Shown: piece after piece, positions 9,727 to 55,841 of the stretch | Numbering within the stretch: the stretch's first letter is position 1 | Layout of the letters: every line of letters begins with the position of its first letter | Assembly (NCBI GenBank): GCA_963817255.1 | Contig: CAWFNT010000004.1 | Span: forward strand, 168,001-232,000 | Origin: an uncultured Actinomycetes bacterium | GTDB lineage: Bacteria > Actinomycetota > Coriobacteriia > Anaerosomatales > CAVRZR01 | Direction: 5' to 3' | DNA: 64,000 nt | Position numbers and translations under genes: made by a program | Notes under the pieces: model-generated | The model's database searches: none | What the model saw: only the letters and a program-made list of their open reading frames with translations | What the model was told of the DNA's origin: nothing

Positions 9727-9859
9727 GGCGGTCAAGTGCGACAGTCCGGCGCGTGACGCACCCGAAGGGCGTCGCCCGCTACGTGCGGCGTCGCGGTGCA
9801 CGGCTTGCTGTTAGTCTCGTCGTGAACTCAGATCAACTCTGAAGAGGCGAGACACCCCG

Positions 9860-10813
9860 ATGTACCACGACGTAGACCGGCCGAGCGCCACACGCATGGC
9901 GCTCACCTTCATGGGCATAGTCGCCGCAATCGTATTGGTGATCGCGGCGAGTTCATTCGCGCTCGGAAGTCTCGGGAAGTCGGACACACCTGCGGCCGTC
10001 GTCTCGCCGCCTCCTACTTCGTCCGCCGCCTCAACGGTCGCGCCTACGACGACGGCGAGTCCGTCCGCGACCTCCTCGGCGTCCGGAAGCCTCTCTTCCG
10101 CATCGGCGAAACCGAAGGCGGTTCCCTCGGCGAAGCCGGTCGCACCTGCGAATCCCGTCCCGCCGACCACTCAGATCGTCAGCTCGGGCGTCGTGGTGAT
10201 CGATGCCGGACACCAGGCACGGGCTGACACAAGCCTCGAACCCATCGGTCCCGGATCCACCGAGAAGAAGCCGAAGGTGGCTGGCGGTGCGACGGGAGTC
10301 GTGGCTCCCCGCGTGCCGGAAAGCGAAATCAACCTCGCGGTCGCGCTCAAGCTCCGGTCGGCGCTCGAGGCCGGCGGGGTGAAGGTCATCATGGTGCGCA
10401 CGAGCCAGGACGTGAACATCGCCAACTCCGAACGGGCGGCGGTCGCGAACGAGGCGGGCGCAGCTCTGTTCGTCCGACTGCATTGCGACGGCATCGACAA
10501 CAGCACGACGCACGGTCTCTCGACGCTCGTGCCGGCTCGTAATCAGTGGACGGGGCCGATCCTCGCCAAGAGCTCGAAGGCAGGTAAGCTCGTTCACGAG
10601 GCGGTGATCGCAGCGACCGGCGCGACCGACCGGGGTATCGTCGGCCGAAGCGACATGTCGGGCTTCAACTGGTCCAAGGTCCCGACGGTCCTCGTCGAAA
10701 TGGGCTTCATGTCGAACTCCGCCGAGGACAGGCTTCTGAACACCCCCTCCTACCAGCAGAAGCTCGCTGAGGGTTTGGCGCGCGGCATCGAGGAGTACCT
10801 CCGGACACAGTAG
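9860..10813 (+). CDS. N-acetylmuramoyl-L-alanine amidase (Amidase_3) with N-terminal membrane anchor and Ala/Ser/Pro linker
   Basis: Motifs are VVVIDAGHQ, ANEAGAALFVRLHCDG and VLVEMGFMSNSAED. The N-terminal TM is ALTFMGIVAAIVLVIAASSFALG. Confidence 0.85.
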   Translation: MYHDVDRPSATRMALTFMGIVAAIVLVIAASSFALGSLGKSDTPAAVVSPPPTSSAASTVAPTTTASPSATSSASGSLSSASAKPKAVPSAKPVAPANPVPPTTQIVSSGVVVIDAGHQARADTSLEPIGPGSTEKKPKVAGGATGVVAPRVPESEINLAVALKLRSALEAGGVKVIMVRTSQDVNIANSERAAVANEAGAALFVRLHCDGIDNSTTHGLSTLVPARNQWTGPILAKSSKAGKLVHEAVIAATGATDRGIVGRSDMSGFNWSKVPTVLVEMGFMSNSAEDRLLNTPSYQQKLAEGLARGIEEYLRTQ

Positions 10814-21869: not shown

Positions 21870-22846
21870 GCGCTCCGCTCCGCTCGAGCGATCCAGCGAG
21901 CACCGCACCCGCGGCTACCTCCTCGTCGTTCTCGCGGCAGCGTGCTGGGCCACGGGTGGGCTCGCGGCCAAGTGGATGTTCACGCCCGCGGCAGACGTTC
22001 CGGCGGGGTGGCGGGTGCAGCCACTCGGCATACCGATGGACCCTGCGGTGTTGTCGGGTTGTCGCGCGCTCGCAGCCTTCGTGCTGCTAGGAGCCTACCT
22101 GCTCGTCTCGCGGCGGCAGGAGATCGGGGTCACGTTCCGAGCCCTTCCGTTTCTGGCGATCTTCGGAGTCGTCGGACTGGCCGGCGTGCACTACACCTAC
22201 TTCAAGACGATCTCTCTCACCAACGTCGCGACGGCGATCCTCCTCGAGTACCTCGCGCCCATCATCGTCCTGGCCGTGTCGGTGGTACTGTTCCATAAGC
22301 GTGTGACGTGGGTCCTTCCGGCCGGCGTCGCTCTGTCGGTACTGGGCTGCGGGCTGGTGGTCGGAGCCATCGGTGGCGACGGCCTGACCGTCTCCGCCGC
22401 CGGTATCGCATGGGGGCTCGCGTCGGCGGTCCTGTTCGCGACCTACTCCCTCATGGGCACGTACGCTGCGGGCCGGTTCTCCCCGTGGACGCTGCTCTTC
22501 TGGGGCCTCGGATTCGCGACCCTCTTCTGGCTCGTCCTCCTCGGATCGGACGACGTCGTCGCCGTCTTTGGTGACACAAAGGCGCTTACTTGCTGTCGTG
22601 TACGTTGCGGTCGTGAGCACGATCATCCCGTTCGGAGCGTTCCTGACGGCCCTGCACTACATCGAGCCCACCCAAGCGACGATCACGGCCACTCTCGAGC
22701 CGGTCCTTGCCGCGATCGCGGCCTTCGCGATCTTCGGCGAGAAGCTGTCTGTCGGCCAGATCCTCGGCGGGCTACTCGTTATCGCTGCCATCGTTCTCGT
22801 GCAGTCCCGTGGCGCCGAGGCGCCGTCGCTTCCCCCGCAGGACTAG
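21817..22846 (+). CDS. EamA/DMT-family transporter; frameshifted in this assembly
   Basis: About ten hydrophobic helices. ORFs 21817-22929 and 22568-22846 join near 22575-22590 (..VAVFGDT..LLAVVYVAVVSTIIPFGAFLTALHYIEP..). The start is uncertain (ATG 21817 or TTG 21862). Confidence 0.75.
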
Positions 22847-22976
22847 CGGTCGAGTCCCACGCGGGAACGCGCGTGGGCCGGTCCGCTGCCTGCATGAAAC
22901 CTCCACATCGGCGGTATACTATTTGCTAAGAGGCGCCCCTGTTCGGGGCGTGAGGATGCCCTCCCGAGGAGGGGAA

Positions 22977-24374
22977 ATGGAGCTCAGCCAGCGCCCTGAA
23001 ATGAGGCAGCGTGTCACGTTGTCTCCGCAGGTCTATCAGGGCCTCAACATCCTCGCGATGCCGATCGCAGATCTCCAGCAGATGGTCGAAGCTGAGATGC
23101 TCGAGAACCCTGTGCTCGAGCTGGACGAGACAGAGTCCGAGCCCGAAGAGCGTGACGAAGAAGCCCCCGAGACGCCCGAGGAAGAAGAGCGCTCGTGGGA
23201 CGAATGGCTCGACCACTACGACGACCTGGATTCGATGGAGCCTACCGCTCCAAGGGACCCGAATGCCGAGAGCACGAACACCGAGGAGTTCGTCGGCGGC
23301 GTACAGTCTTTCGACGACTACCTGCTCGATCAGCTCGCGATGCTCGATATCAGTGACGACGTGCGGCGCGCGGCCCAGGCCGTCGTAGGCTCTCTTGACG
23401 ACGACGGCTTCTTCCTCGCTTCGCTCAGGGAGGTCGCTGCGCTCGCTGGCGTGTCCGAAGAGGCGGCTCGCGAAGGTCTACGGGTGGTGCAACAGCTCGA
23501 CCCGCCCGGCGTCGGCGCGCGCAACCTTGCGGAGGCGCTGACGATCCAGATGGAGTACCTCAGTCTCGAGGAGCCGGTGCTCGAACGCATCGTGCAGGAG
23601 CACCTCGATGACATCGCAGCGAACCACTACCGCAAGGTGGCCAGAGCGCTCAAGATCGATGAGACCGAAGTCCGCCGTGTCGTGGAGATCCTGAGATCGC
23701 TGAACCCTCGGCCGGCCGGCGCCTTCTCGCCGGGCCCATCGCCCGGCTACATCATCCCGGACGTCACGCTTCGGCGGTTCGGAGAAGACTGGCTGATCAT
23801 CGCGAACAACGAGGCAATCCCGACGCTCAAGGTGAGCCCTCGTTATCGGGCGATGCTTCGAACCGGCTCCGACGCAGACGACGAGACCCGTCGCTACCTC
23901 AAGGACAAGATCCGCTCGGCTGAGTCATTCATCCGGAACGTCGATCGCCGCAAGGACACCGTGACCCGCATCACGCAGATCATCCTCGAGGTGCAGCGCG
24001 AGTTCTTCGAGGACGGCAAGGGGCTCTTGCGCCCGTTGCGTCTGGAGGACGTCGCGGTGGAGATCGGAGTGCATCTCTCGACCATCAGCCGCGGGGTCAC
24101 GGGCAAGTACATGGCCACGCCGTACGGTCTGTTCGAGCTCAAGCACTTCTTCTCGGGCGGCTATCGCACCACGACCGGTATGGATGTCGCGGCGACGAGC
24201 ATCAAGCAAAGGCTCCGCGAGCTCGTGAAGGAAGAGGATCCGATCAAACCGCTGTCTGATCAGCGTCTGGCGGAGTTGCTCTCGGAGGAGGGCGTGACGG
24301 TCGCGCGGAGAACGGTGGCGAAGTACCGAGAGGAACTCAGGATCGATCCCTCCTGGGCCAGGCGCCGCCGATGA
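22977..24374 (+). CDS. rpoN: RNA polymerase sigma-54 factor
   Basis: ATG at 22977 follows GAGGAGGGG. The N-terminal region is MELSQRPEMRQRVTLSPQVYQGLNILAMP, followed by an acidic region II and the C-terminal RpoN box ARRTVAKYR. Confidence 0.95.
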   Translation: MELSQRPEMRQRVTLSPQVYQGLNILAMPIADLQQMVEAEMLENPVLELDETESEPEERDEEAPETPEEEERSWDEWLDHYDDLDSMEPTAPRDPNAESTNTEEFVGGVQSFDDYLLDQLAMLDISDDVRRAAQAVVGSLDDDGFFLASLREVAALAGVSEEAAREGLRVVQQLDPPGVGARNLAEALTIQMEYLSLEEPVLERIVQEHLDDIAANHYRKVARALKIDETEVRRVVEILRSLNPRPAGAFSPGPSPGYIIPDVTLRRFGEDWLIIANNEAIPTLKVSPRYRAMLRTGSDADDETRRYLKDKIRSAESFIRNVDRRKDTVTRITQIILEVQREFFEDGKGLLRPLRLEDVAVEIGVHLSTISRGVTGKYMATPYGLFELKHFFSGGYRTTTGMDVAATSIKQRLRELVKEEDPIKPLSDQRLAELLSEEGVTVARRTVAKYREELRIDPSWARRRR

Positions 24375-25945
24375 CGCCACCGGAGGAATCGCAGCCCCGG
24401 CAGGCGAACGACAACACCGACGAACGTCGCGCCTATCGGGTTCGAGCAACGATGATCATCTCGGCGATGATCATCGCGATAACGCTCATTCCCATCTCTA
24501 CCGACGGGCCGAACTTCGGCCACTTCCTGCACGATCGGGACCTCGCGGTTGCGCTTCAGATGGCGTTGCAGCAGCTCTACCGTCGTGCCTTCTACATCCC
24601 TATCGTGTATGCGGCCTTCGTGTTCGGACGCCGAGGCGGCATCGTCACCGGAGCTGCCTGCTCGATCATCTTCCTGGTCTACGGCATCGTTCGGAACCCC
24701 ACCATGATTCCGGGCAGCCCCAACGAACTCCTCACCGGGATTGGGGCCTTTCTCGAGATAGGCATGTATCTGGCGATCGGCGCTGTCTTCGGGGCGCTCA
24801 GAGACAAGGAAGCGAACCGAACGGCAGACCTGAGCCAGGTCAGCCAGCAGCTCGAGGAGGCCTACAAGAAGCTGGAGGAGCGTGCGATCCAGCTCATCAA
24901 CATTCAGGACTACACCCAGTCGATCCTCCGCTCGATCACCTCCGGAGTGCTCACCGTCGGACCCGACGGGTCGGTCACCACAGCGAATCCCGCCGCAGAG
25001 CGGATGCTCGGCATGTCGGAGTTTGAGATGGTGCCCAAGCCCATCGGCGCGCTCTTCCGCGATGACGGAGGCATCAGTGCCGATGTGTCCAGGGTGCTTG
25101 CCGGCCGAGCGCCGCTCGCGCTGCGCGAGGTGACGCTCGTGACCGCAGGCGGGCGAACCGTTCACGCGCAGGCATCAACGTCGCGCATGCGCGCCGTTGG
25201 CGGACAGATACTCGGCGCGGTCGTGACGGTCGAGGACGTTTCGGACGTGAGGGCACTCACCGATCAACTGATACGTGCCGACAGGCTGGCAGCGATGGGC
25301 GAGCTTACCGCGGGTGTGGCACACGAGGTACGAAACCCCTTGGGCGTGATTCGAGCGTCCGTGCAGCTGCTTGAAGATGCGAAATGCGACGAAGCTCGTA
25401 TCCATGAGGCTGCCGGCATCATCAAGCAGGAGATCGATCGCCTCGACAGGGTCATCAAGGCGTTGCTGGATTTCGGCAGACCCAGCACGCCGACACTCGT
25501 TGCGACCGACGTCGAGTCCGTGCTGGACGACGTTCTCCTGTTCACCACGCGCTTTGCGACCCAGGCGAACGTCGAGATCGAGCGAGTCGTGCAAAGCGAC
25601 CTCCCTCGCGTGGTTGCCGATCCCGACCAGCTCAAACAGGTATTCCTGAATCTCGTCACGAACGCGGTTCAGGCGATGGAGGACACGGGCGGGCACATAA
25701 CGGTGTCCACGAGGAGTGAGGGCGAGTTCGTACAGGTCGACGTCGCGGACGACGGCCCGGGCATCGCGGCATCTGATCTGACCAAGGTCTTCGACCCCTT
25801 CTACTCTCGCCGTTCGGAGGGAACGGGTCTTGGCCTTACCATCGTCCACAGGATCGTGGACGAGCACGGAGGACACATCGAAGTGGAGAGCGGGCATATG
25901 GGTACTCTGTTCAGGGTGTCCCTTCCCGCGTTGATCGAGCAATGA
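24371..25945 (+). CDS. membrane-associated PAS sensor histidine kinase (NtrB/AtoS-like)
   Basis: The start overlaps the rpoN stop (ATGA). There is an N-terminal hydrophobic region, a PAS-like segment, the H-box HEVRNPLGVI, and N/G boxes (NLVTNAVQAM, DDGPGI, GTGLGL). Confidence 0.9.
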   Translation: MTPPEESQPRQANDNTDERRAYRVRATMIISAMIIAITLIPISTDGPNFGHFLHDRDLAVALQMALQQLYRRAFYIPIVYAAFVFGRRGGIVTGAACSIIFLVYGIVRNPTMIPGSPNELLTGIGAFLEIGMYLAIGAVFGALRDKEANRTADLSQVSQQLEEAYKKLEERAIQLINIQDYTQSILRSITSGVLTVGPDGSVTTANPAAERMLGMSEFEMVPKPIGALFRDDGGISADVSRVLAGRAPLALREVTLVTAGGRTVHAQASTSRMRAVGGQILGAVVTVEDVSDVRALTDQLIRADRLAAMGELTAGVAHEVRNPLGVIRASVQLLEDAKCDEARIHEAAGIIKQEIDRLDRVIKALLDFGRPSTPTLVATDVESVLDDVLLFTTRFATQANVEIERVVQSDLPRVVADPDQLKQVFLNLVTNAVQAMEDTGGHITVSTRSEGEFVQVDVADDGPGIAASDLTKVFDPFYSRRSEGTGLGLTIVHRIVDEHGGHIEVESGHMGTLFRVSLPALIEQ

Positions 25946-25961
25946 TCGAGAGGATCATGGG

Positions 25962-27311
<1,350 letters not shown>

Positions 27312-39766: not shown

Positions 39767-39840
39767 TGGAGGCGACGCCCAGATTCGAACTGGGGATAAG
39801 GGCTTTGCAGGCCCCTGCCTTGCCACTTGGCCACGTCGCC
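39767..39840 (-). tRNA. tRNA-Cys (GCA)
   Basis: The reverse complement GGCGACGTGGCCAAGTGGCAAGGCAGGGGCCTGCAAAGCCCTTATCCCCAGTTCGAATCTGGGCGTCGCCTCCA folds as a cloverleaf. The anticodon loop is CTGCAAA and CCA is encoded. Confidence 0.9.
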
Positions 39841-39928
39841 GTTGTCGGGCGCCGAAGCGCCTGTCAATGAAGAAGGCCGGTCGACCGGGCTGCCGAGCGA
39901 ACCCTGTGACCAGCCTTCGGACGATTCT

Positions 39929-40004
39929 TGGAGCGGACGACCGGATTCGAACCGGCGACCCCAACCTTGGCAAGGTTGTGCTCTACCAACTGAGCCACGT
40001 CCGC
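39929..40004 (-). tRNA. tRNA-Gly (GCC)
   Basis: The reverse complement is GCGGACGTGGCTCAGTTGGTAGAGCACAACCTTGCCAAGGTTGGGGTCGCCGGTTCGAATCCGGTCGTCCGCTCCA. The anticodon loop is TTGCCAA and CCA is encoded. Confidence 0.9.
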
Positions 40005-40132
40005 GCGCGAAGGGTAGTCTAGCAGCGGGTCATGGGGTGCGCAACCCGCTCGCCACGCGCCCAAATTGGGGGTACCGCACGTCAGCAGGGCTGGTACAAT
40101 ACCCTTCGCTGCGTCCCCTATGGCAGCAGATC

Positions 40133-40207
40133 GGGCGCTTAGCTCAGGGGGAGAGCACTTCCTTGACGCGGAAGGGGTCAGAGGTTCAAATCCTCTAGCG
40201 CCCACCA
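40133..40207 (+). tRNA. tRNA-Val (GAC)
   Basis: The sequence is GGGCGCTTAGCTCAGGGGGAGAGCACTTCCTTGACGCGGAAGGGGTCAGAGGTTCAAATCCTCTAGCGCCCACCA. The anticodon loop is TTGACGC and CCA is encoded. An extended -10-like TGGTACAAT lies about 30 nt upstream. Confidence 0.9.
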
Positions 40208-41574: not shown

Positions 41575-42507
41575 ATGGAAGCAGCTATCGAAGTCAAATC
41601 GCTCACGAAGTCGTACAAGGACGTCTCAGTCCTGAAAGGCGTCAGTCTCAGCGTCAAGAAGGGGACGGTCTTCGCACTGCTGGGCAGCAATGGCGCCGGC
41701 AAGACTACGACGATCAACATACTGACGACACTCATCAGGGCCGATGGCGGCACCGCCACGGTGTCCGGCTACGACGTTGCCGCGCAGCCGGACAGGGTGC
41801 GCGAGGAGATCAGTCTTACCGGGCAGTTCGCTGCGGTGGACGATCGGTTGACCGGGCGCGAGAACTTGCTGCTGATCGGCGACTTGCGTCACGTTGCCGA
41901 TTCCGCGAAGACCGCTGAGGACCTTCTGCGGCGGTTTGCACTTGAAGAGGCGGCCGATCGCGGAGTGTCCACGTACTCCGGTGGCATGCGGCGCCGCCTC
42001 GACATTGCGATGAGCTTGATCGGCAATCCCTCGGTGATCTTCTTGGACGAGCCCACCACCGGATTCGACCCGGAGGGTCGCAACGAGATGTGGCGGACGA
42101 TCCGCACGCTTGCCCAAGGCGGAACGACGGTATTCCTCACGACGCAGTACCTCGATGAGGCGGACGAACTGGCCGACAACATCGCAGTCCTGGACCAAGG
42201 CAGAATCGTCGCCAGCGGAACAGCCACCGAGCTGAAGAAGCTCGTACCGGGTGGGCTCATCGAGCTGGCCTTCCAAGACGAAGAGACACGCGGTGCGGCA
42301 GCAAGGGCACTTGGCGACAGTCACACGTGTTTGGAAGGCGAGGGCGCGACGCTGCGAATCACCACCGACGGAACCGTGGCCGCGGTGGCGAGCGTCTTCG
42401 AGGAACTCCGCGACGCCGGCATCGAGCCGACGGAGTTCGCCCAGAAGGTGCCCACCCTTGACGACGTGTTCCTGAAGATCGTCGGCACGGACCGAAAGGA
42501 GGCGTGA
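41575..42507 (+). CDS. ABC transporter ATP-binding protein (DrrA/ABC-2 exporter type)
   Basis: Walker A is GSNGAGKTTT, the signature is YSGGMRRRL, and Walker B is VIFLDEPTTG. Confidence 0.9.
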   Translation: MEAAIEVKSLTKSYKDVSVLKGVSLSVKKGTVFALLGSNGAGKTTTINILTTLIRADGGTATVSGYDVAAQPDRVREEISLTGQFAAVDDRLTGRENLLLIGDLRHVADSAKTAEDLLRRFALEEAADRGVSTYSGGMRRRLDIAMSLIGNPSVIFLDEPTTGFDPEGRNEMWRTIRTLAQGGTTVFLTTQYLDEADELADNIAVLDQGRIVASGTATELKKLVPGGLIELAFQDEETRGAAARALGDSHTCLEGEGATLRITTDGTVAAVASVFEELRDAGIEPTEFAQKVPTLDDVFLKIVGTDRKEA

Positions 42508-49536: not shown

Positions 49537-51021
49537 TCACCGCACGATGATTTCGGCAGAGCCTGCGGACCAGCTCGGAGCATGGGCCGCATCTGCGTGG
49601 TAAGCGCGGAGCTTCCACGAACCCTTGTAGCGGAGCTTCATCCGGACGGTGTACCTCGTGTAGGTGCGGTAGTTGGACGCTCGCGCCTTCACGAAGCCGT
49701 AGCTCTTCCACGCCCGCCCCACCTTCCTATAGAAGACCACCTTGACGGGGTAGGAGCCAGCGAGGTGTCTAGGCCGTAAGGCGCCGGTGACGGTGAACGC
49801 GACGTTCCGCCTGACGCTTCTCGGAGCGACGGGCGCGGACACAACAGCCTTCGGCCGAGCGGCGCTGGCCACGGTTGTAAACACCTCCGAGTCCGTGCCG
49901 ACGCCCAAGCCCCCCTGCCCGTGCCACACGATCCTGTTGCCCGAAACGCCGGACGCCGTGTCGAAGACGTCATTCCGAGTGATCTGTTGCACACCGGTTG
50001 TCGGCGTCCAAGAGAAGATCTCGTTGTCCGAGCCCTTGTCGGAGCCTCCCGGCGAATGCCATACGATCCGGTCACCCGAGACCCCGGCCGCGTAGTCTTC
50101 GACGACGTTCCTAGTGATCTGCGTCGTGCCTGCCGTGGGTGTCCACGTGAAGATCTCGCTGTCGAGGCCCTTGTCGCTCCCGCCCGGGCCGGTCCATACG
50201 ATCCGGTCGCCCGCTATCGTTCTGGCGTTGTCCCCAGTCGAGTTCTCCGTGAGCTGCTGGACACCACCTGCAGAAGTCCATGTGAACACCTCGCTGTCGG
50301 TGCCGCCGTCTGATCCGCCGGCGCCGGACCACAGCACTCTGTTCGCCGAAAGGCCCTGCGCGTACTCGTCGGTGTCGTTGGTGGTGAGCTGCTGAATCCC
50401 GGCCGCCGCCGTCCACAGGAAGATCTCGGTATCGATGCCCCCGTCGGTCCCGCCCTCGCCCGTCCACACGACTCGGTCGCCGGAGACACCGGCCACTGAG
50501 TCCCACGCGCCGTTGTGCGTGAGCTGCTCGGCGCCACCTGCCGGCGTCCAGGTGAAGACCTCGTCGTCCTCGCCACCCTCGGACAAGCCTGAAGCGTTCC
50601 AGACGACGCGGTCCCCAGATACGTCTTTCACGAGGTCGTCACTCGTATTGGTCGTGAGCTGACTGACGCCGCCGCCCGGCGTCCAGGTGAAGATCTCGGT
50701 GTCCGTTCCGCCATCTGAGCCGCCGGGGCCGTACCAGACGACCCGCTCCCCGGAGACCGCCTGTGCGTAGTCGTCGCCCGAGTTCTCGGTCAGCTGCACG
50801 ATGCCGCTGGTCGGCGCCCATGTGAAGACCTCGTGGTCGGCCCCCAAGTCGCTGCCGCCCGTGCCGTACCAGGCGATGCGGTTGCCCGAGACTTTGGGGA
50901 ACACGTCTTCGGTGGCGTTGCTGGTGATCTGTGTGCTCGTGCCGGCCACGGCCGAAGGGCAGCACGCCATCGCGACCGCGAGCGCGAGAGCGATAGAGGC
51001 GCTCGAGAGTCTTCCCGGCAT
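49537..51021 (-). CDS. secreted protein with eight tandem 45-aa repeats (probable beta-propeller) and a C-terminal beta-sandwich module
   Basis: ATG at 51021 follows GAGGAGGAG. The signal peptide is MPGRLSSASIALALAVAMACCPSAVAG. The repeats have the form SG[DN]R[IV]VW.G.GGSD.G.D.E[IV]FTWTP..G..QLT.N...D. Confidence 0.8.
   Translation of the reverse strand: MPGRLSSASIALALAVAMACCPSAVAGTSTQITSNATEDVFPKVSGNRIAWYGTGGSDLGADHEVFTWAPTSGIVQLTENSGDDYAQAVSGERVVWYGPGGSDGGTDTEIFTWTPGGGVSQLTTNTSDDLVKDVSGDRVVWNASGLSEGGEDDEVFTWTPAGGAEQLTHNGAWDSVAGVSGDRVVWTGEGGTDGGIDTEIFLWTAAAGIQQLTTNDTDEYAQGLSANRVLWSGAGGSDGGTDSEVFTWTSAGGVQQLTENSTGDNARTIAGDRIVWTGPGGSDKGLDSEIFTWTPTAGTTQITRNVVEDYAAGVSGDRIVWHSPGGSDKGSDNEIFSWTPTTGVQQITRNDVFDTASGVSGNRIVWHGQGGLGVGTDSEVFTTVASAARPKAVVSAPVAPRSVRRNVAFTVTGALRPRHLAGSYPVKVVFYRKVGRAWKSYGFVKARASNYRTYTRYTVRMKLRYKGSWKLRAYHADAAHAPSWSAGSAEIIVR
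49820..50890 (-). repeat. eight tandem about 135-bp coding repeats inside the propeller gene
   Basis: Eight consecutive 45-aa units are readable directly in the translation. This accounts for the many parallel ORFs on both strands here. Confidence 0.7.
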
Positions 51022-51177
51022 GAAGCTCCTCCTCAATCGGCATCGGCATGCTTGCAGGATCGAGCGGTTTGCCAGCGCCTCGTTGGGCAAGCACATATTC
51101 GCGCGCGTGCTCCCATCGGCATGCTACACCCCGTCCCATGCGCCGGCATGTGGAGCCGGCGGGGGAGTGTGCCCCGC

Positions 51178-51624
51178 CTACTCCTCGGCGCCGAAACACT
51201 CCTCGTAGCTGCTGCACCCGGCGCAGCTGGGATTCAGTCAAGCGCTGAAGCCGGACCACCCGCACATGCGCTTGTACAGGAACTTCTTCCAGCGCATGTC
51301 CTTGTCGTTCTCTGCCTCGAGAGCAGGGAAGTGGGTACGCATGATGCGCCGCACCTCGTCGCGGCTCTCGACGCCCATGGAACGCCAAAGATGCCCTGGC
51401 TCGAGCGCGGATGAGGCGATCCACTCCGCCGTTCTCTGCGTCTGGTTGTCGCGGATAGCCGCGTGCTCCATCAGCAGTTCGACGAGGCTCCTGTACTCGT
51501 CGACACGGTTCCCTGGGATGTCGCGTGGGCCGCTCACCTCTCGACGATAGCACGCGTGCCCGGCAGCCATTGCCGGCCGGTCGAGAAACCGCACCACGTG
51601 AAGGCTATACTGAGTTTTAGGCAA
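51178..51624 (-). CDS. NifQ-family protein with an in-frame TGA at the first Cys position of the Cx4Cx2Cx5C motif
   Basis: ..DMRWKKFLYKRMCGWSGFSA-[TGA 51238-51240]-LNPSCAGCSSYEECFGAEE-TAG (51178-51180), all in one frame. MRWKKF.Y..C and SC..C..Y..CFG.E are NifQ hallmarks. TTG start at 51624. Confidence 0.7.
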
Positions 51625-51782: not shown

Positions 51783-52445
51783 ATGAGGGCCTACTGGATG
51801 TGGTTCGTTCGCACAGCGATATCGGTGCTGGTCGCGCTAATTCTGGTGACGACTCCGGCGTGCAAGTCGAAGGACACTCCGAATGTCGAGAAGCGAGGAG
51901 CCGTACAGTCGACGGGGACGGTGCAAGCCCAGATGCCTTCGGCGACGACGGCAACGACCGACGCCACCGGATCGGTTGCTGCAACCGGCACTCCACCGCC
52001 GACCGGAAGCACCGGCACGACGCCTGGTCAGACGAAGCCTTCGGCACCGACCATCTGGCCGACGAAACTCGGCCAGTTCGCGCGGGTTGTGAACAGCCCG
52101 ATCTGGTATCCGAAGACGCTACCGGCCGGTTGGAAGCTCGATTCCGTCGACGTGATCGAACTCGACAAGGGCACAGGCCTCGTAGCCAACATCATCTTCC
52201 TGAAGGGCGACAAGGGGCTCGTGCTCACGCAGGGGAGCCCTAAGCAGCGGTCCTACGACATCGTTTCGGCTGGGAGGGTGCCCTGGGGCTCCGAGACCGC
52301 CGACGTCATACACCAAGACCCGTCGGACCCCTCGTCGCCAGTGATCATCGTCTACAACAAGGGCGGCAACTTCGCCGAACTGCAGGGCGATCCGAGCGCT
52401 GAGGAGCTCAAGGCCATAGCGAAGGGCATGGTGCTGGTGAGGTAG
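51783..52445 (+). CDS. putative lipoprotein (DUF4367-like C-terminal domain)
   Basis: The signal/lipobox-like sequence is ..ISVLVALILVTTPAC, followed by a Thr/Pro-rich linker, then ..IWYPKTLPAGWKLDSVDVI.., reminiscent of DUF4367. Confidence 0.55.
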   Translation: MRAYWMWFVRTAISVLVALILVTTPACKSKDTPNVEKRGAVQSTGTVQAQMPSATTATTDATGSVAATGTPPPTGSTGTTPGQTKPSAPTIWPTKLGQFARVVNSPIWYPKTLPAGWKLDSVDVIELDKGTGLVANIIFLKGDKGLVLTQGSPKQRSYDIVSAGRVPWGSETADVIHQDPSDPSSPVIIVYNKGGNFAELQGDPSAEELKAIAKGMVLVR

Positions 52446-52591
52446 GTGCGGCAGAAGCAGGGTGCGATCGTGCCGTTTCGTCGGCACGTTCCGATCCCGG
52501 AGCGACGTGAGGTCAAGTGATCGCATCTGCTCCGGGGACGAAGGGTTTGGCGGAATACCGTCCGGCCTTCAAAGCGAGGAAAGGAGCGAGT

Positions 52592-53827
52592 ATGCGACAC
52601 GCTAGGGGCAAGGTCAGTCTAAGGAGCGTAACGCTGCTTGTCGCGAGCATGGTGCTCGTGGCGGCGGTGTTCCCGGCGATCGCGGCGGCCGCGACGCCAA
52701 AGCCGCCGTTGGTGTTGAGCAAGACGGTCATGGTGAAGGCGGCGCCGTTCAAGATCTACGGCAAGATGAGCCCGTTGCTGAAGGGCAAGAAGGTCTCGGT
52801 CATGATCCGCAAGCCCGGTCGTACGTTCTGGACGACCGTCGGCACTCCGACGATCGGCAAGACCGGAACCTACAGTCTCACGTACACGCCGAAGCTGGGC
52901 GGGACATTCCTAGTGCAGTCGCAATACGGAAGCACGAAGCTGGGGCTCTCACGAGTAGCGACCATGAAGTGCCTCAAGGGTCCGGGCGTGAGGTACGAGC
53001 TCAAGATGTCCTCGACGACTTCGACGAGAGACTCGGGCTTGTGGGAGGCGTTGAAGGTCAACTTCATCCAGCAGTGCCCCGAGTATGCGACGAAGGCTCG
53101 GTTCGTCGGCACAGGTGCGGCGATCGCTGACGGCTGCAACGGGAACGCGGATGTCCTGCTGGTACACAGCCCCGTACAGGAAGTCGCCTTCATGAAGGGC
53201 ATCGCGGCGGACGGAAGCACGTGCGCGTACAAAGGCCTGACTCGCTTCAAGGTCATGTACAACGACTTCATTCTCGTGGGCCCGAAGACGGATCCCGCGG
53301 ACATCGGAATCAGCGACACCGCGAAGACCGCCTTCGGCAAGGTGGCGGCCAAGGAGTCGAAGTTCTGGTCCCGGAACGACAAGTCCGGCACCAACACCAA
53401 GGAGAAGGAGATCTGGAAGTCGATCGGCGATCCCCAGCTCACGGCAGCCGGCAAGCCTCAGGCGTGGTATCAGGCCTCCGGCACGATGGGCATGGCAGCA
53501 GCCCTGTCTGCTTGCGATCAGGGCAACGGCTACACGCTCTCAGACCGTGCGACGTGGATGAACTGGCTGAACCTTCAGGACTTCAAACCCGGCAGCACGA
53601 CGGAGAAGAACGTCAGCATCGAGATCGTCAACGAGGGCGATTCGACGTACTTCAACCAGTACAGCGTGATGGAAGTCGCAAAGGCGAAGAACTGGGAAGG
53701 CGCGCAGGACTTCCGGCGCTGGATCATGTCCTCGGCCGCGCAGGCCATCATCAGGCAGTACGGCGAAGACACCTTCGGAAAGGCACTGTTCATTCCGAAC
53801 GCCGGTAGCTACCCCGCCGGTAGCTAG
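52592..53827 (+). CDS. tungstate/molybdate-type ABC substrate-binding protein (TupA-like) with an N-terminal beta-sandwich module
   Basis: ATG at 52592 follows AGGAAAGGAG, with a signal peptide. An about 90-aa module (..FKIYGKMSPLLKGKKVSVMIRKPGRTFWTTVG..GTYSLTYTPKLGGTFLVQSQY) precedes the PBP core with SSTTSTRDSGL, characteristic of TupA-type binders. Confidence 0.75.
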   Translation: MRHARGKVSLRSVTLLVASMVLVAAVFPAIAAAATPKPPLVLSKTVMVKAAPFKIYGKMSPLLKGKKVSVMIRKPGRTFWTTVGTPTIGKTGTYSLTYTPKLGGTFLVQSQYGSTKLGLSRVATMKCLKGPGVRYELKMSSTTSTRDSGLWEALKVNFIQQCPEYATKARFVGTGAAIADGCNGNADVLLVHSPVQEVAFMKGIAADGSTCAYKGLTRFKVMYNDFILVGPKTDPADIGISDTAKTAFGKVAAKESKFWSRNDKSGTNTKEKEIWKSIGDPQLTAAGKPQAWYQASGTMGMAAALSACDQGNGYTLSDRATWMNWLNLQDFKPGSTTEKNVSIEIVNEGDSTYFNQYSVMEVAKAKNWEGAQDFRRWIMSSAAQAIIRQYGEDTFGKALFIPNAGSYPAGS

Positions 53828-53983
53828 CAGGTTTCGTGGTCTATGCATGCGCCCCGGTCGGCTGCTGCGGCGGTCGGCCGGGGCGCGCTGGGTTGTGAGA
53901 TGCTGTCTGCTGTGGGATTCCTCGCGTGCGTCACGAGGCGGGACGTGGGTCCGCGGCGTCATCGGTGAGGTGGCTGGAGAGAC

Positions 53984-54688
53984 ATGGATATCTACCTCAA
54001 TGCCGTTGGCGGTGCGTTCCGGCTGCTCACAAGCGGCGACACGGGTGTCTATCCGGTGGTCCTGCTGTCGCTCAAGGTCTCCGGCTCGGCCGTGATCATC
54101 GCAAGCCTGATCGGCATCCCGTTCGGCTACATGCTCGGCATGACGAGGTTCGGCGGTCGTGCCGCGATCATTCTGCTGATCAACACCGCGATGGGTTTTC
54201 CGCCCGTCGTGATAGGCCTCTTCGTCTACATGGCGCTGTCGCGAAACGGGCCTCTGGGATTCCTGGACCTGCTGTTCACACCCCAAGGAATGGTCATCGC
54301 TCAAGTCATCCTGGCCGTGCCGCTCGTCGTCGGAGTGACGACTGCCGCCGTGGCCGCCGTCGCTCGCGACCTGCGCCTCCAACTCCGGGCGCTCGGAGCT
54401 TCGCGTGTGCAGCTCGGAATCGCGGTCTTGAAAGAGGCGCGCGGCGGGGTGATGGTCTCGATTATCGCCGGATTCGGGGCGATCATCTCCGAGGTAGGCG
54501 CGGTGTCCATCGTCGGCGGTGGCATCGAGGGCTACACGGACGTGATGACCACCGCGATCCTCGCCAATGTGAACCGCGGAGACCTGACGACGGCCATGGC
54601 GTGGGCAATGGTTCTCATCGGCATCGCGCTCACGGTCAACATCGCTCTCACGACGCTCCAGAACACGGGGACCGCGTATGAGCGCTGA
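53984..54688 (+). CDS. ABC transporter permease (TupB-like)
   Basis: Five or six TM helices and the EAA-like loop region ..LRALGASRVQLGIAVLKEARG... Confidence 0.85.
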   Translation: MDIYLNAVGGAFRLLTSGDTGVYPVVLLSLKVSGSAVIIASLIGIPFGYMLGMTRFGGRAAIILLINTAMGFPPVVIGLFVYMALSRNGPLGFLDLLFTPQGMVIAQVILAVPLVVGVTTAAVAAVARDLRLQLRALGASRVQLGIAVLKEARGGVMVSIIAGFGAIISEVGAVSIVGGGIEGYTDVMTTAILANVNRGDLTTAMAWAMVLIGIALTVNIALTTLQNTGTAYER

Positions 54689-55841
54689 GTCGGCAGCGAC
54701 AGATGTGTCGCGGCCGTCCCGGGCGCCCTCGGTCCGCGGCGAAGGGCTGCGCGTCGAGTATCGGCGCAGGACCGTGTTGGACGTTGAGAGCATTACGCTC
54801 CCCGCCGGACAGACGTACGTTCTCCTCGGAGCGTCGGGAGCCGGCAAGTCCACGCTGCTACGTGTCTTGGGCATGCTCGAACGCCCGACTGCAGGGACGG
54901 TGTTCTTCGATGGCGTGGCGGTTGAGAAGCGCACACTGGCCGAACGCCGCCGGATCGCTGCGGTCTTCCAGAAGCCCTATCTGCTGCGCGGCAATGTCGG
55001 AGCCAATGTCGGATACGGTCTGAAGCTCCGTGGCGTACCCGCGGGCGAACGCGCAGAGCGCGTCGCGCAGGTCCTCGATCGAGTAGGCCTGTCGGGTTGG
55101 GAGCCACGCTCGGCGCTCACGCTATCGGGCGGCGAAGCGCAGCGTGTCGCCCTCGCCCGCGCCCTGGTGCTGGAGCCGCATCTGCTGCTGCTGGACGAGC
55201 CGCTGTCCTATATGGACCCGCTGCTCAAACGCAAACTGACGATCGAGTTTGCGGGGATCCTCGCTGGAGAGCACGTAACCACCCTCTACGTGACGCACGA
55301 TCAGGAGGAGGCTGCCGTAGTCGCCGACCGGATCGGCATCATGCGCGAGGGGAGGATCGTTTCCGATGGAGATCCCGCTACCGTCCTCACGCTCCCCGAG
55401 GATGAATGGGTCGCGTCGTTCGTCGGTACCGAGACACCTTTTGAGGGCGTGGTCGCGGAGCGCGAAGATGGCATTGTGCGGATCGACTGCGACGGGCAGT
55501 CGGTGTACGGGATCGGGGACCTCCCCGTGGGCGAGTCGGCGATCGCGGGCGTCCGGCCCGAAGACGTTGTCTTGTTCGAGCCGGACGTCGAGCTTCCAGC
55601 AACCTCGGCGCGGAACCAGATGGAGGGCGAGATCGTCGGGCTTACGCAGGACGGTTCGATGGTTCAGGTTGTGGTGGCGAGCGGTTGCGTGAGAGTGGCG
55701 TCCCGTGTCTCGAGACTCTCGGCGGCCTCGCTCGACCTTCGGATCGGATCGCGGGTGAAGGTCCTGTTCAAGGCGAGTGCGGTGCGTACGCGCCGAGCAG
55801 CGGGTCACACGGACCAGACGCGCGGCGATGGCGTCGGCTGA
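54678..55841 (+). CDS. ABC transporter ATP-binding protein with C-terminal TOBE-like domain (TupC/ModC-like)
   Basis: Walker A is GASGAGKST, the signature is LSGGEAQRV, and Walker B is LLLLDEPLS. The C-terminal about 130 aa is a beta-rich TOBE-like extension. The start overlaps the upstream gene. Confidence 0.9.
   Translation: MSAESAATDVSRPSRAPSVRGEGLRVEYRRRTVLDVESITLPAGQTYVLLGASGAGKSTLLRVLGMLERPTAGTVFFDGVAVEKRTLAERRRIAAVFQKPYLLRGNVGANVGYGLKLRGVPAGERAERVAQVLDRVGLSGWEPRSALTLSGGEAQRVALARALVLEPHLLLLDEPLSYMDPLLKRKLTIEFAGILAGEHVTTLYVTHDQEEAAVVADRIGIMREGRIVSDGDPATVLTLPEDEWVASFVGTETPFEGVVAEREDGIVRIDCDGQSVYGIGDLPVGESAIAGVRPEDVVLFEPDVELPATSARNQMEGEIVGLTQDGSMVQVVVASGCVRVASRVSRLSAASLDLRIGSRVKVLFKASAVRTRRAAGHTDQTRGDGVG

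Follow-up and report, generated by a model that had tools for sequence, protein, structure and literature searches.

A stretch of 64 kb (65% G+C) from contig CAWFNT010000004.1 of an uncultured Actinomycetes bacterium, called the window below, carries on its minus strand a nifQ-like gene whose reading frame contains an internal TGA. A single frame runs as ...DMRWKKFLYKRMCGWSGFSA-TGA-LNPSCAGCSSYEECFGAEE-TAG, its TGA lying at 51240-51238 and its TAG at 51180-51178. In public records, as in the output of gene callers, the coding region ends at the TGA, and the products, of 77-128 amino acids (aa), are called truncated NifQ or left unnamed; homologues are already annotated as PF04891 in public records. 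When the TGA is read as cysteine (Cys), the Pfam NifQ profile (PF04891) matches with 129.7 bits against a cut-off of 27 (E=1.7e-37), which places the protein in this family, and the match crosses the TGA and continues up to the final profile position (50-159 of 159). None of the NCBIfam models matches the nifQ-like protein. The TGA falls on the first Cys of Cx4Cx2Cx5C, regarded as the molybdenum (Mo)-binding motif of NifQ (PMC4417242). With selenocysteine (Sec, U) at the UGA, the predicted product has 119 aa and the motif reads C92-x7-U100-x4-C105-x2-C108-x5-C114: the Cx4Cx2Cx5C spacing (U100-x4-C105-x2-C108-x5-C114) is exact provided that the UGA specifies Sec (or Cys), the literal four-Cys motif being absent.

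The likely start codon is GTG 51537, because it aligns with the MSDTRDIP-type starts of the 99-aa homologues P0002-P0007; a mechanical list of open reading frames (ORFs) gives a 128-aa product from TTG 51624. An earlier, sequence-only reading of this DNA had placed an in-frame TGA at the first Cys of the cluster motif, which the reading frame and the Pfam match through the TGA uphold. Its product of 148 aa gives way, by the homologue alignment, to one of 119 aa from GTG 51537 with Sec at residue 100. Genes with TGA at this position are called Sec-type below, and those with a Cys codon Cys-type.

Word-indexed searching of 5.8 billion proteins brought up 39 homologues, of which 35 (45-78% identical) end exactly at ...CGW(S/A/P/E)GF(S/T/H)(A/G), the residue preceding the TGA of the window; the four most distant, from metagenome-assembled genomes (MAGs) of Coriobacteriia, continue as C-RAPSCxxCSSYEECFxPE. 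DNA of homologues was taken from GTDB genomes, JGI metagenomes, and ENA and Logan assemblies, covering nanopore and Illumina data from unrelated samples. TGA occupies this column in 20 of 20 distinct Sec-type genes (34-81% identical, from independent assemblies) and TAA or TAG never does, while the same column holds TGC in all 13 Cys-type homologues (Proteobacteria, Sorangium and some Coriobacteriia MAGs). Searched exhaustively with HMMER, 1.84 billion cluster representatives (50% identity clusters) yielded 391 NifQ representatives, about six or seven of which end at the Sec column, very divergent ones included, and in P0043 and P0084 (34-40% identical) the TGA at the column was confirmed on DNA; 5-6 of these clusters come on top of the homologues listed above. 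Judged from these alignments, the recurrence of the TGA column in 20 sequences is far beyond chance. The sequence-only reading had taken the pairing of a UGA with a conserved Cys as a selenoprotein signature and had proposed comparing the codon among orthologues; the comparison agrees with it, the clade using TGA throughout and the outgroup NifQ genes TGC.

Past the TGA, all 20 Sec-type genes continue for 18-22 in-frame codons with the pattern x-x-P-x-C-x-x-C-x-x-x-x-E-C-F, followed by a true stop (TAG or TGA). Positions P+3, C+5, C+8, E+13, C+14 and F+15 are nearly invariant among them, and synonymous variation occurs outside the hairpin described below, for example at codons G+16, E+13 and C+14. 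Conserved residues combined with synonymous codon change argue for protein-level selection on the tail in this frame, and by this comparative evidence the 19 codons past the UGA of the window are translated and maintained as protein. Conservation of the protein in one frame is thus found on both sides of the UGA, as in selenoprotein genes. In a neighbour-joining tree built with the Sec/Cys column masked, all 20 Sec-type proteins form one clade, whose sister group consists of the Cys-type proteins of Coriobacteriia MAGs; this topology fits one ancient switch to UGA, followed by long retention.

The base directly preceding the UGA is also conserved: it is U in 20 of 20 Sec-type genes (as part of GCU, GGU, AGU or CAU) versus 0 of 13 Cys-type genes (Fisher p=1.7e-9), and the codons that supply it are rare in the lineage, GCU making up 7% and GGU 14% of their own codon families. 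Such an invariant U(-1) may serve as a decoding-context signal, and could help to predict the Sec codons of this lineage more reliably.

Downstream of the UGA, the mRNA of the window can fold into a hairpin, AGCUGCGC/CGGGU/GC-A-GCAGCU, that starts at the 10th nucleotide (nt) after the UGA, places the loop 17 nt from it and has an energy of -9.5 to -11.6 kcal/mol. RNAfold finds an equally good alternative, a 7-bp GCUGCGC-CGG-GUGCAGC stem at 51227-51211 with the loop CGG. According to a published model, a bacterial selenocysteine insertion sequence (bSECIS) has an apical loop of 3-9 nt with a G among its first two bases, a stem no shorter than 4 bp, a distance of 16-37 nt from UGA to loop and a minimum free energy of -7.5 kcal/mol or lower (PMC13188914). 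The hairpin of the window has all four properties and so fits this model, as do those of 17 of the 18 Sec-type genes versus 6 of 13 Cys-type genes (p=0.004). In all 18 Sec-type genes tested the hairpin lies 9-13 nt, and its loop 16-20 nt, past the UGA. The mean energy of the central hairpin is -9.5 kcal/mol in Sec-type versus -3.1 kcal/mol in Cys-type genes (Mann-Whitney p=8e-5); six of the latter have no such hairpin, and in others it is weak.

Subgroups of the Sec-type clade place their stems at the same site in slightly shifted registers (AGCUGCGC/GCAGCAGCU, GCUCGG/CCGAGC, GUUCGG/CCGAAC and UGCGGCG/CGUCGCA), and the differences between them include paired changes and switches between Ser codon families. 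When the alignment is fixed, 85% of the cells of the 7-bp core helix are paired, compared with 21-61% in slid registers, and the covariation score is 0.30, compared with at most 0.105 in slid registers; the observed value was reached in 0 of 500 shuffles. Owing to the register shifts between subgroups, the single consensus of RNAalifold is limited to 4 pairs. Synonymous sites were examined in eight sequences of the window's subgroup. Of the codons in the hairpin, the five with four- to six-fold degeneracy never change (Ser AGC, Ala GCC, Gly GGG, Ser AGC, Ser AGC), with an expected joint probability of about 0.001 under the codon usage of the lineage. Outside the hairpin, by contrast, variation affects 21 of 21 such codons, and the pairwise synonymous differences amount to 0.25-0.82 (Fisher p=1.5e-5 versus the hairpin). 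Inside the hairpin only two Cys codons toggle between UGC and UGU, with G-U pairing kept. An Rfam scan, at gathering or permissive thresholds, matched no SECIS or other family. Taken together, these comparisons indicate that the mRNA hairpin past the UGA is under RNA-level selection. The SECIS-like hairpin that the sequence-only reading had drawn 10 nt past the UGA was recovered by RNAfold, and both its fit to the published bSECIS model and its constraint at the RNA level speak for that assignment.

On this evidence we consider it highly probable that the UGA encodes Sec and that the gene belongs to a new selenoprotein family, a Sec-containing NifQ, that uses the known UGA/SECIS mechanism. By analogy with the bacterial Sec pathway, SelB-GTP carrying Sec-tRNA(Sec) would bind the hairpin as the ribosome nears the UGA, Sec would be inserted at codon 100, and translation would run on to the TAG; under selenium shortage, a 99-aa product without the cluster motif would be released.

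Several observations weigh against this interpretation. Scans for tRNA genes found no tRNA-Sec in the window and 15 loci, which are small slices of each genome; tblastn searches with E. coli SelA, SelB and SelD found none of them in the window and all fetched loci, likewise small genome slices; and two scans for an ORF-TGA-ORF arrangement, across the window and lineage loci totalling about 400 kb, revealed no credible second selenoprotein gene. All Sec-type members are MAG or metagenome sequences, known from sequence alone. The bSECIS model is permissive in GC-rich DNA, as the six Cys-type controls that pass it illustrate, and is weak evidence by itself. Within the window's subgroup, the hairpin is not stabler than synonymous resamples (fraction at or below the observed energy about 0.3); this test discriminates weakly there because the peptide S-C-A-G-C-S-S itself favours pairing, and the evidence for the hairpin in this subgroup therefore rests on the frozen sites and not on energy. 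In an AlphaFold 2 model of a Cys-type homologue the helical core is confident and the Cys tail has a predicted local distance difference test (pLDDT) score of 46-59, and the PDB holds no NifQ structure and no relative by sequence or fold. Sec machinery in this lineage is nevertheless plausible, given that several Actinobacteria are documented to have the Sec trait (PMC5029168).

It might be suspected that the TGA reflects a wrong base call, a private nonsense mutation or a pseudogene in decay, since the window is apparently a long-read MAG with indel errors and split genes occur in related nanopore loci. However, the same TGA recurs in 20 distinct sequences of 34-81% protein identity, which stem from independent samples and sequencing platforms, and purifying selection acts on both of its flanks; the 20-sequence comparison excludes such an accident, and the probability left to it is vanishingly small. 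Equally negligible is a genetic code of the table 4 or 25 kind, with UGA reassigned as a sense codon throughout the genome. TGA is indeed a minority stop in the window, where the 41 called genes end with TAG (27), TGA (13) or TAA (1), and this dominance of TAG is unusual, TGA normally predominating in bacteria of 65% GC. Yet the thirteen genes that end at TGA are well formed, ATGA start/stop overlaps at 24371-24374 and 42504-42507 included, long ORFs are intact under table 11 with complete Pfam domains, and a GC content of 65% is unlike that of known UGA-reassigned lineages. With TGA an ordinary stop in 13 of 41 window genes, reassignment is effectively refuted.

Translation could instead end at the UGA, leaving a 99-aa NifQ core without the Cys motif, in which case the downstream conservation would reflect a small peptide, a terminator or an attenuator. 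Gene callers and public records do annotate that truncated product, and the hairpin could in principle be another RNA signal. Such an ending is very improbable, however, as the downstream segment keeps the same frame in 20 of 20 genes and has no start codon of its own, the tail reproduces the family spacing xxPxCxxCx5C and the C-terminus with synonymous variation at conserved residues, and the column uses TGA only, whereas the true terminators vary between TAG and TGA; moreover, we know of no function for a NifQ without the cluster motif. What the comparative data show is read-through of the UGA and selection on the hairpin, not the identity of the inserted residue. The UGA might thus be decoded otherwise than as Sec, either by a tRNA(Cys) that mimics tRNA(Sec) via SelB and the hairpin or through hairpin-stimulated near-cognate read-through with Trp or Cys, and the absence of sel genes and tRNA-Sec from the window and the fetched loci, small slices as they are, would agree with this. 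Opal suppressors of the first kind, tRNA(Cys) species that mimic tRNA(Sec), have been reported from delta-proteobacteria (PMC5389517). But a UGA kept so long at the position of a Cys ligand, next to a hairpin of SECIS type, matches the classical Sec/Cys signature; the insertion of Cys would be achieved more simply with a plain UGC, as found in the sister clade; and the only tRNA-Cys in the window has the normal GCA anticodon. We know of no report of a Sec-mimicking tRNA(Cys) from Actinomycetota, and we regard decoding as a residue other than Sec as improbable. The features discussed here and in the following paragraphs are collected in Table 1.

Table 1. Coordinates of the nifQ-like gene, its signals and its surroundings. 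Positions without a locus name refer to the window; fetched loci carry L numbers.
Feature	Position	Strand	Basis or remark
nifQ-like gene, putative selenoprotein gene	51178..51537	-	GTG start, 99 codons, UGA (Sec100), 19 codons, TAG
Alternative in-frame starts upstream of GTG 51537	TTG 51624, ATG 51570	-	
Conserved U directly 5' of UGA (third base of Ala codon GCU)	51241	-	codon comparison
In-frame UGA, probably read as selenocysteine, at first Cys of NifQ Cx4Cx2Cx5C	51238..51240	-	column comparison
SECIS-like hairpin, 8 bp with bulged A, apical loop CGGGU (51220-51216)	51207..51228	-	RNAfold
19 codons after UGA (LNPSCAGCSSYEECFGAEE), remaining three Cys of cluster motif	51181..51237	-	protein conservation
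True terminator TAG	51178..51180	-	stop 18-22 codons past the UGA/UGC column in every homologue, TAG or TGA
Conserved upstream element CCTAAAACTCAGTATAGCC, candidate promoter/operator	51603..51621	-	common to window, L002 and L003
Protein of 220 aa, lipoprotein-like N-terminus, first gene of divergent operon	51783..52445	+	weak DUF4245 match only
Tup-like Mo/W oxyanion ABC transporter	52517..55841	+	NCBIfam and Pfam best matches
Transporter: substrate-binding protein	52517-53827	+	
Transporter: permease	53984-54688	+	
Transporter: ATPase with C-terminal TOBE domain	54678-55841	+	
nif operons with nifQ[UGA]	L008 9971-17546; L009 1346-4300; L022 5980-12348		
Molbindin gene beside nifQ	L007 about 9790-9995; L001 9752-9958; L046 5659-5865; L048 813-1022		
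PF12727/MotA_ExbB-DUF2149 cluster	L001 10403-17676; L042 8680-16351; L044 800-7999; L046 1166-5865		
tRNA-Cys/Gly/Val cluster	39767-40207; L002 17903-18345; L007 12701-13140		

Divergently from nifQ runs an operon that encodes a lipoprotein-like protein, whose gene adjoins nifQ in L002, L003, L005 and L007 too, and an ATP-binding cassette (ABC) transporter. The best NCBIfam matches of the transporter are TupA at 147 bits (cut-off 400), TupB at 158 (320) and, for the ATPase, WtpC at 236 (440), all below the cut-offs for equivalogs, so that the three proteins do not qualify as TupABC; the Pfam domains are PBP_like_2, BPD_transp_1 and ABC_tran with TOBE. The sequence-only reading had named a Tup-type transporter divergent from nifQ, which holds in so far as TupA and TupB are the best matches and the ATPase carries a TOBE domain, and fails at the equivalog cut-offs. 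Going by these profile matches, the transporter is Tup-like, with Mo or tungsten (W) as candidate substrate. The divergent arrangement of nifQ and transporter is repeated in L002, L003/4, L007 and L026. The conserved element CCTAAAACTCAGTATAGCC sits in otherwise diverged intergenic DNA between the two, and a second conserved stretch, GTGCTATCGTCGAG, which closely precedes the start codon both in the window and in L002, is possibly the -10 box of a leaderless transcript.

The nifH-nifD-nifK(-nifEN-nifX-PII) operons of L008, L009 and L022 begin with the Sec-type nifQ, and their NifD genes are uninterrupted. This position at the head of nif operons leads us to conclude that the Sec form serves genuine diazotrophs. 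The NifQ proteins of these three MAGs cluster with those of Coriobacteriia/Actinomycetes MAGs, and diazotrophy in this lineage is possibly under-appreciated. The complete Mo-nitrogenase operons were observed in high-GC MAGs that are labelled 'Eubacteriales' or 'actinobacterium' or bear no label. The 64-kb window itself contains no nif genes, no genes of Mo/W enzymes and no selenium genes. Other neighbours of Sec-type genes comprise small TOBE/Mop proteins, regulators with helix-turn-helix (HTH) and PBP_like domains, and modA/modB-like genes with a NifA-type activator. The Mo/W context proposed by the sequence-only reading is thereby strengthened, relatives of the gene heading nifHDK operons or adjoining Mod/Tup, Mop/TOBE and PBP_like regulator genes.

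A small (~68 aa) TOBE/Mop molbindin gene directly adjoins the Sec-type nifQ in four loci, which reinforces the link to Mo/W, and a NifA-type activator gene stands beside nifQ in L023 (6378-8285). Also recurrent beside Sec-type nifQ is a gene cluster for an HTH-PBP_like (PF12727) regulator, large DUF5648/NHL proteins and several unknown ORFs, which further holds MotA_ExbB (PF01618), DUF2149 (PF09919) and an unknown protein of ~240 aa; the cluster may be a Mo/W-related system driven by the proton-motive force.

Other observations concern the wider surroundings. Directly downstream of nifQ, the minus strand of the window (49537-51096) encodes a secreted-looking protein of 519 aa, 63% conserved in L002, that consists of ~9 repeats of the form '...SGDR(I/V)VW..GGSD.G.D.E(I/V)F.WTP..G..Q(L/I)T' and has no Pfam match. 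Positions 22707-27311 hold rpoN, the sigma-54 gene, along with genes for a PAS histidine kinase and for a response regulator that depends on sigma-54; relatives of this genome bear the labels Actinomycetes/Coriobacteriia, and sigma-54 is, to our knowledge, generally absent from Actinobacteria. Three genomes share, in synteny near nifQ, a cluster of tRNA-Cys(GCA), tRNA-Gly(GCC) and tRNA-Val(GAC) genes with no tRNA-Sec among them. The anaerobic ribonucleotide reductase NrdD, encoded immediately upstream of nrdG and nifQ, is split into ORFs of 711 aa and 63 aa that are out of frame by 11 nt (L042 4851-7189, L043 1-824), and the split is identical in two independent Illumina assemblies.

The NifQ of Azotobacter vinelandii is a monomeric iron-sulphur (Fe-S) molybdoprotein in which a [3Fe-4S] precursor gives rise to a [Mo-3Fe-4S] group, and which acts as Mo donor for FeMo-co, the iron-molybdenum cofactor of nitrogenase; the mechanism of Mo insertion has been described as unknown (PMC11605450). 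If the Sec-containing protein works as the A. vinelandii protein does, its U-x4-C-x2-C-x5-C tail, together with the invariant C92, would hold a [3Fe-4S] precursor, which would take up Mo (or W) to become a [Mo-3Fe-4S]-type group and would then be handed on. The biochemistry of NifQ further suggests that the selenolate of U100 could be one of the cluster ligands, alongside C105, C108, C114 and C92. For members that head nifHDK(EN) operons, the acceptor would be FeMo-co assembly; the window copy probably accepts the oxyanion brought in by the Tup-like Mo/W uptake system with which it is paired. A selenolate has a lower pKa than a thiolate and is both a better nucleophile and a better leaving group. 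That the Sec residue directly ligates Mo (or W) on NifQ is a tentative extension of this scheme, and we think it rather unlikely. Were it true, the delivery of Mo to nitrogenase FeMo-co would be selenium-dependent in anaerobic, high-GC, Actinomycetota-labelled bacteria, as would the handling of Mo/W after Tup-type uptake in the subclade of the window; it would be the first selenoprotein in metallocluster trafficking, and would provide a natural selenium label showing which residue of Cx4Cx2Cx5C does the chemistry.

A catalogue of May 2026 with 119 prokaryotic selenoprotein families and subfamilies lists Sec-NifD and does not include NifQ (PMC13188914), deep-Sep and BSepDB do not mention NifQ, and full-text searches of the accessible literature brought up nothing on NifQ as a selenoprotein and, for NifQ with selenocysteine, a single unrelated paper, although NifQ may already stand among the unvalidated selenoprotein candidates that Deng et al. 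2026 drew from groundwater MAGs. The remark of the sequence-only reading that it was aware of no described Sec-containing NifQ is consistent with this search of the 119-family catalogue and the literature. Read as proposed here, the genes would add NifQ (PF04891) to the selenoprotein families, where public records now mis-annotate a truncated protein of 77-128 aa, and would link selenium, Mo/W and Fe-S in one small trafficking protein. In some members, the step at which Mo enters the synthesis of the nitrogenase cofactor would then require selenium, which would bear on how trace metals limit N2 fixation in groundwater and in anoxic soils and sediments. A natural Sec would also mark one ligand position of NifQ as chemically special and offer a handle for Se K-edge extended X-ray absorption fine structure (EXAFS) and 77Se nuclear magnetic resonance (NMR) spectroscopy, by which Mo and Fe could be told apart as its binding partner.

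Among known systems, FdhA and FwdB have Sec as a direct Mo/W ligand. Sec-type NifQ resembles them in that selenium is tied to Mo/W chemistry and in the use of a UGA with a downstream in-frame SECIS; unlike FdhA, where Sec sits on the Mo/W of a pterin cofactor in the catalytic site, it would carry Sec in the Fe-S/Mo tail of a small trafficking protein, and the folds are unrelated. The catalogued metal- or cluster-binding selenoproteins include (2Fe-2S)-binding CopZ-family forms, an Fe-S cluster domain protein (UxxC) and HesB-like proteins (PMC13188914, Table 1), which are likewise small, have a Cys of a metal or cluster motif replaced by Sec and were predicted from Sec/Cys pairs; in contrast to the proteins described here, none of them belongs to PF04891. 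Closer in function is the NifD of three Group III nitrogenases, in which alpha-Sec62 is a P-cluster ligand: there, too, a cluster-ligand Cys of the nif system is replaced by Sec, recognized by the same criteria of an in-frame stop codon and a bSECIS, but Sec-NifD is the catalytic subunit and concerns another cluster, whereas NifQ is the Mo donor, and selA/B/D have been confirmed in the Sec-NifD genomes only (PMC3760896). The NifQ of Azotobacter vinelandii and Klebsiella shares with the Sec-type proteins a strong profile match, the C-x7-[C/U]-x4-C-x2-C-x5-C spacing and the same C-terminus, and the clade members that head nifHDKEN operons and the linkage to molybdate-type transport and TOBE proteins fit a common role in Mo handling. 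The Sec-type proteins differ in that the first Cys of the motif is a UGA, in their length of 119 aa (versus about 190) without roughly the first 50 profile positions, and in the place of the window copy next to a Tup-like (tungstate-type) transporter and not among nif genes. They differ also in distribution: NifQ has been said to be characteristic of Proteobacteria (PMC11605450), whereas the Sec-type form is found in anaerobic Actinomycetota-labelled MAGs.

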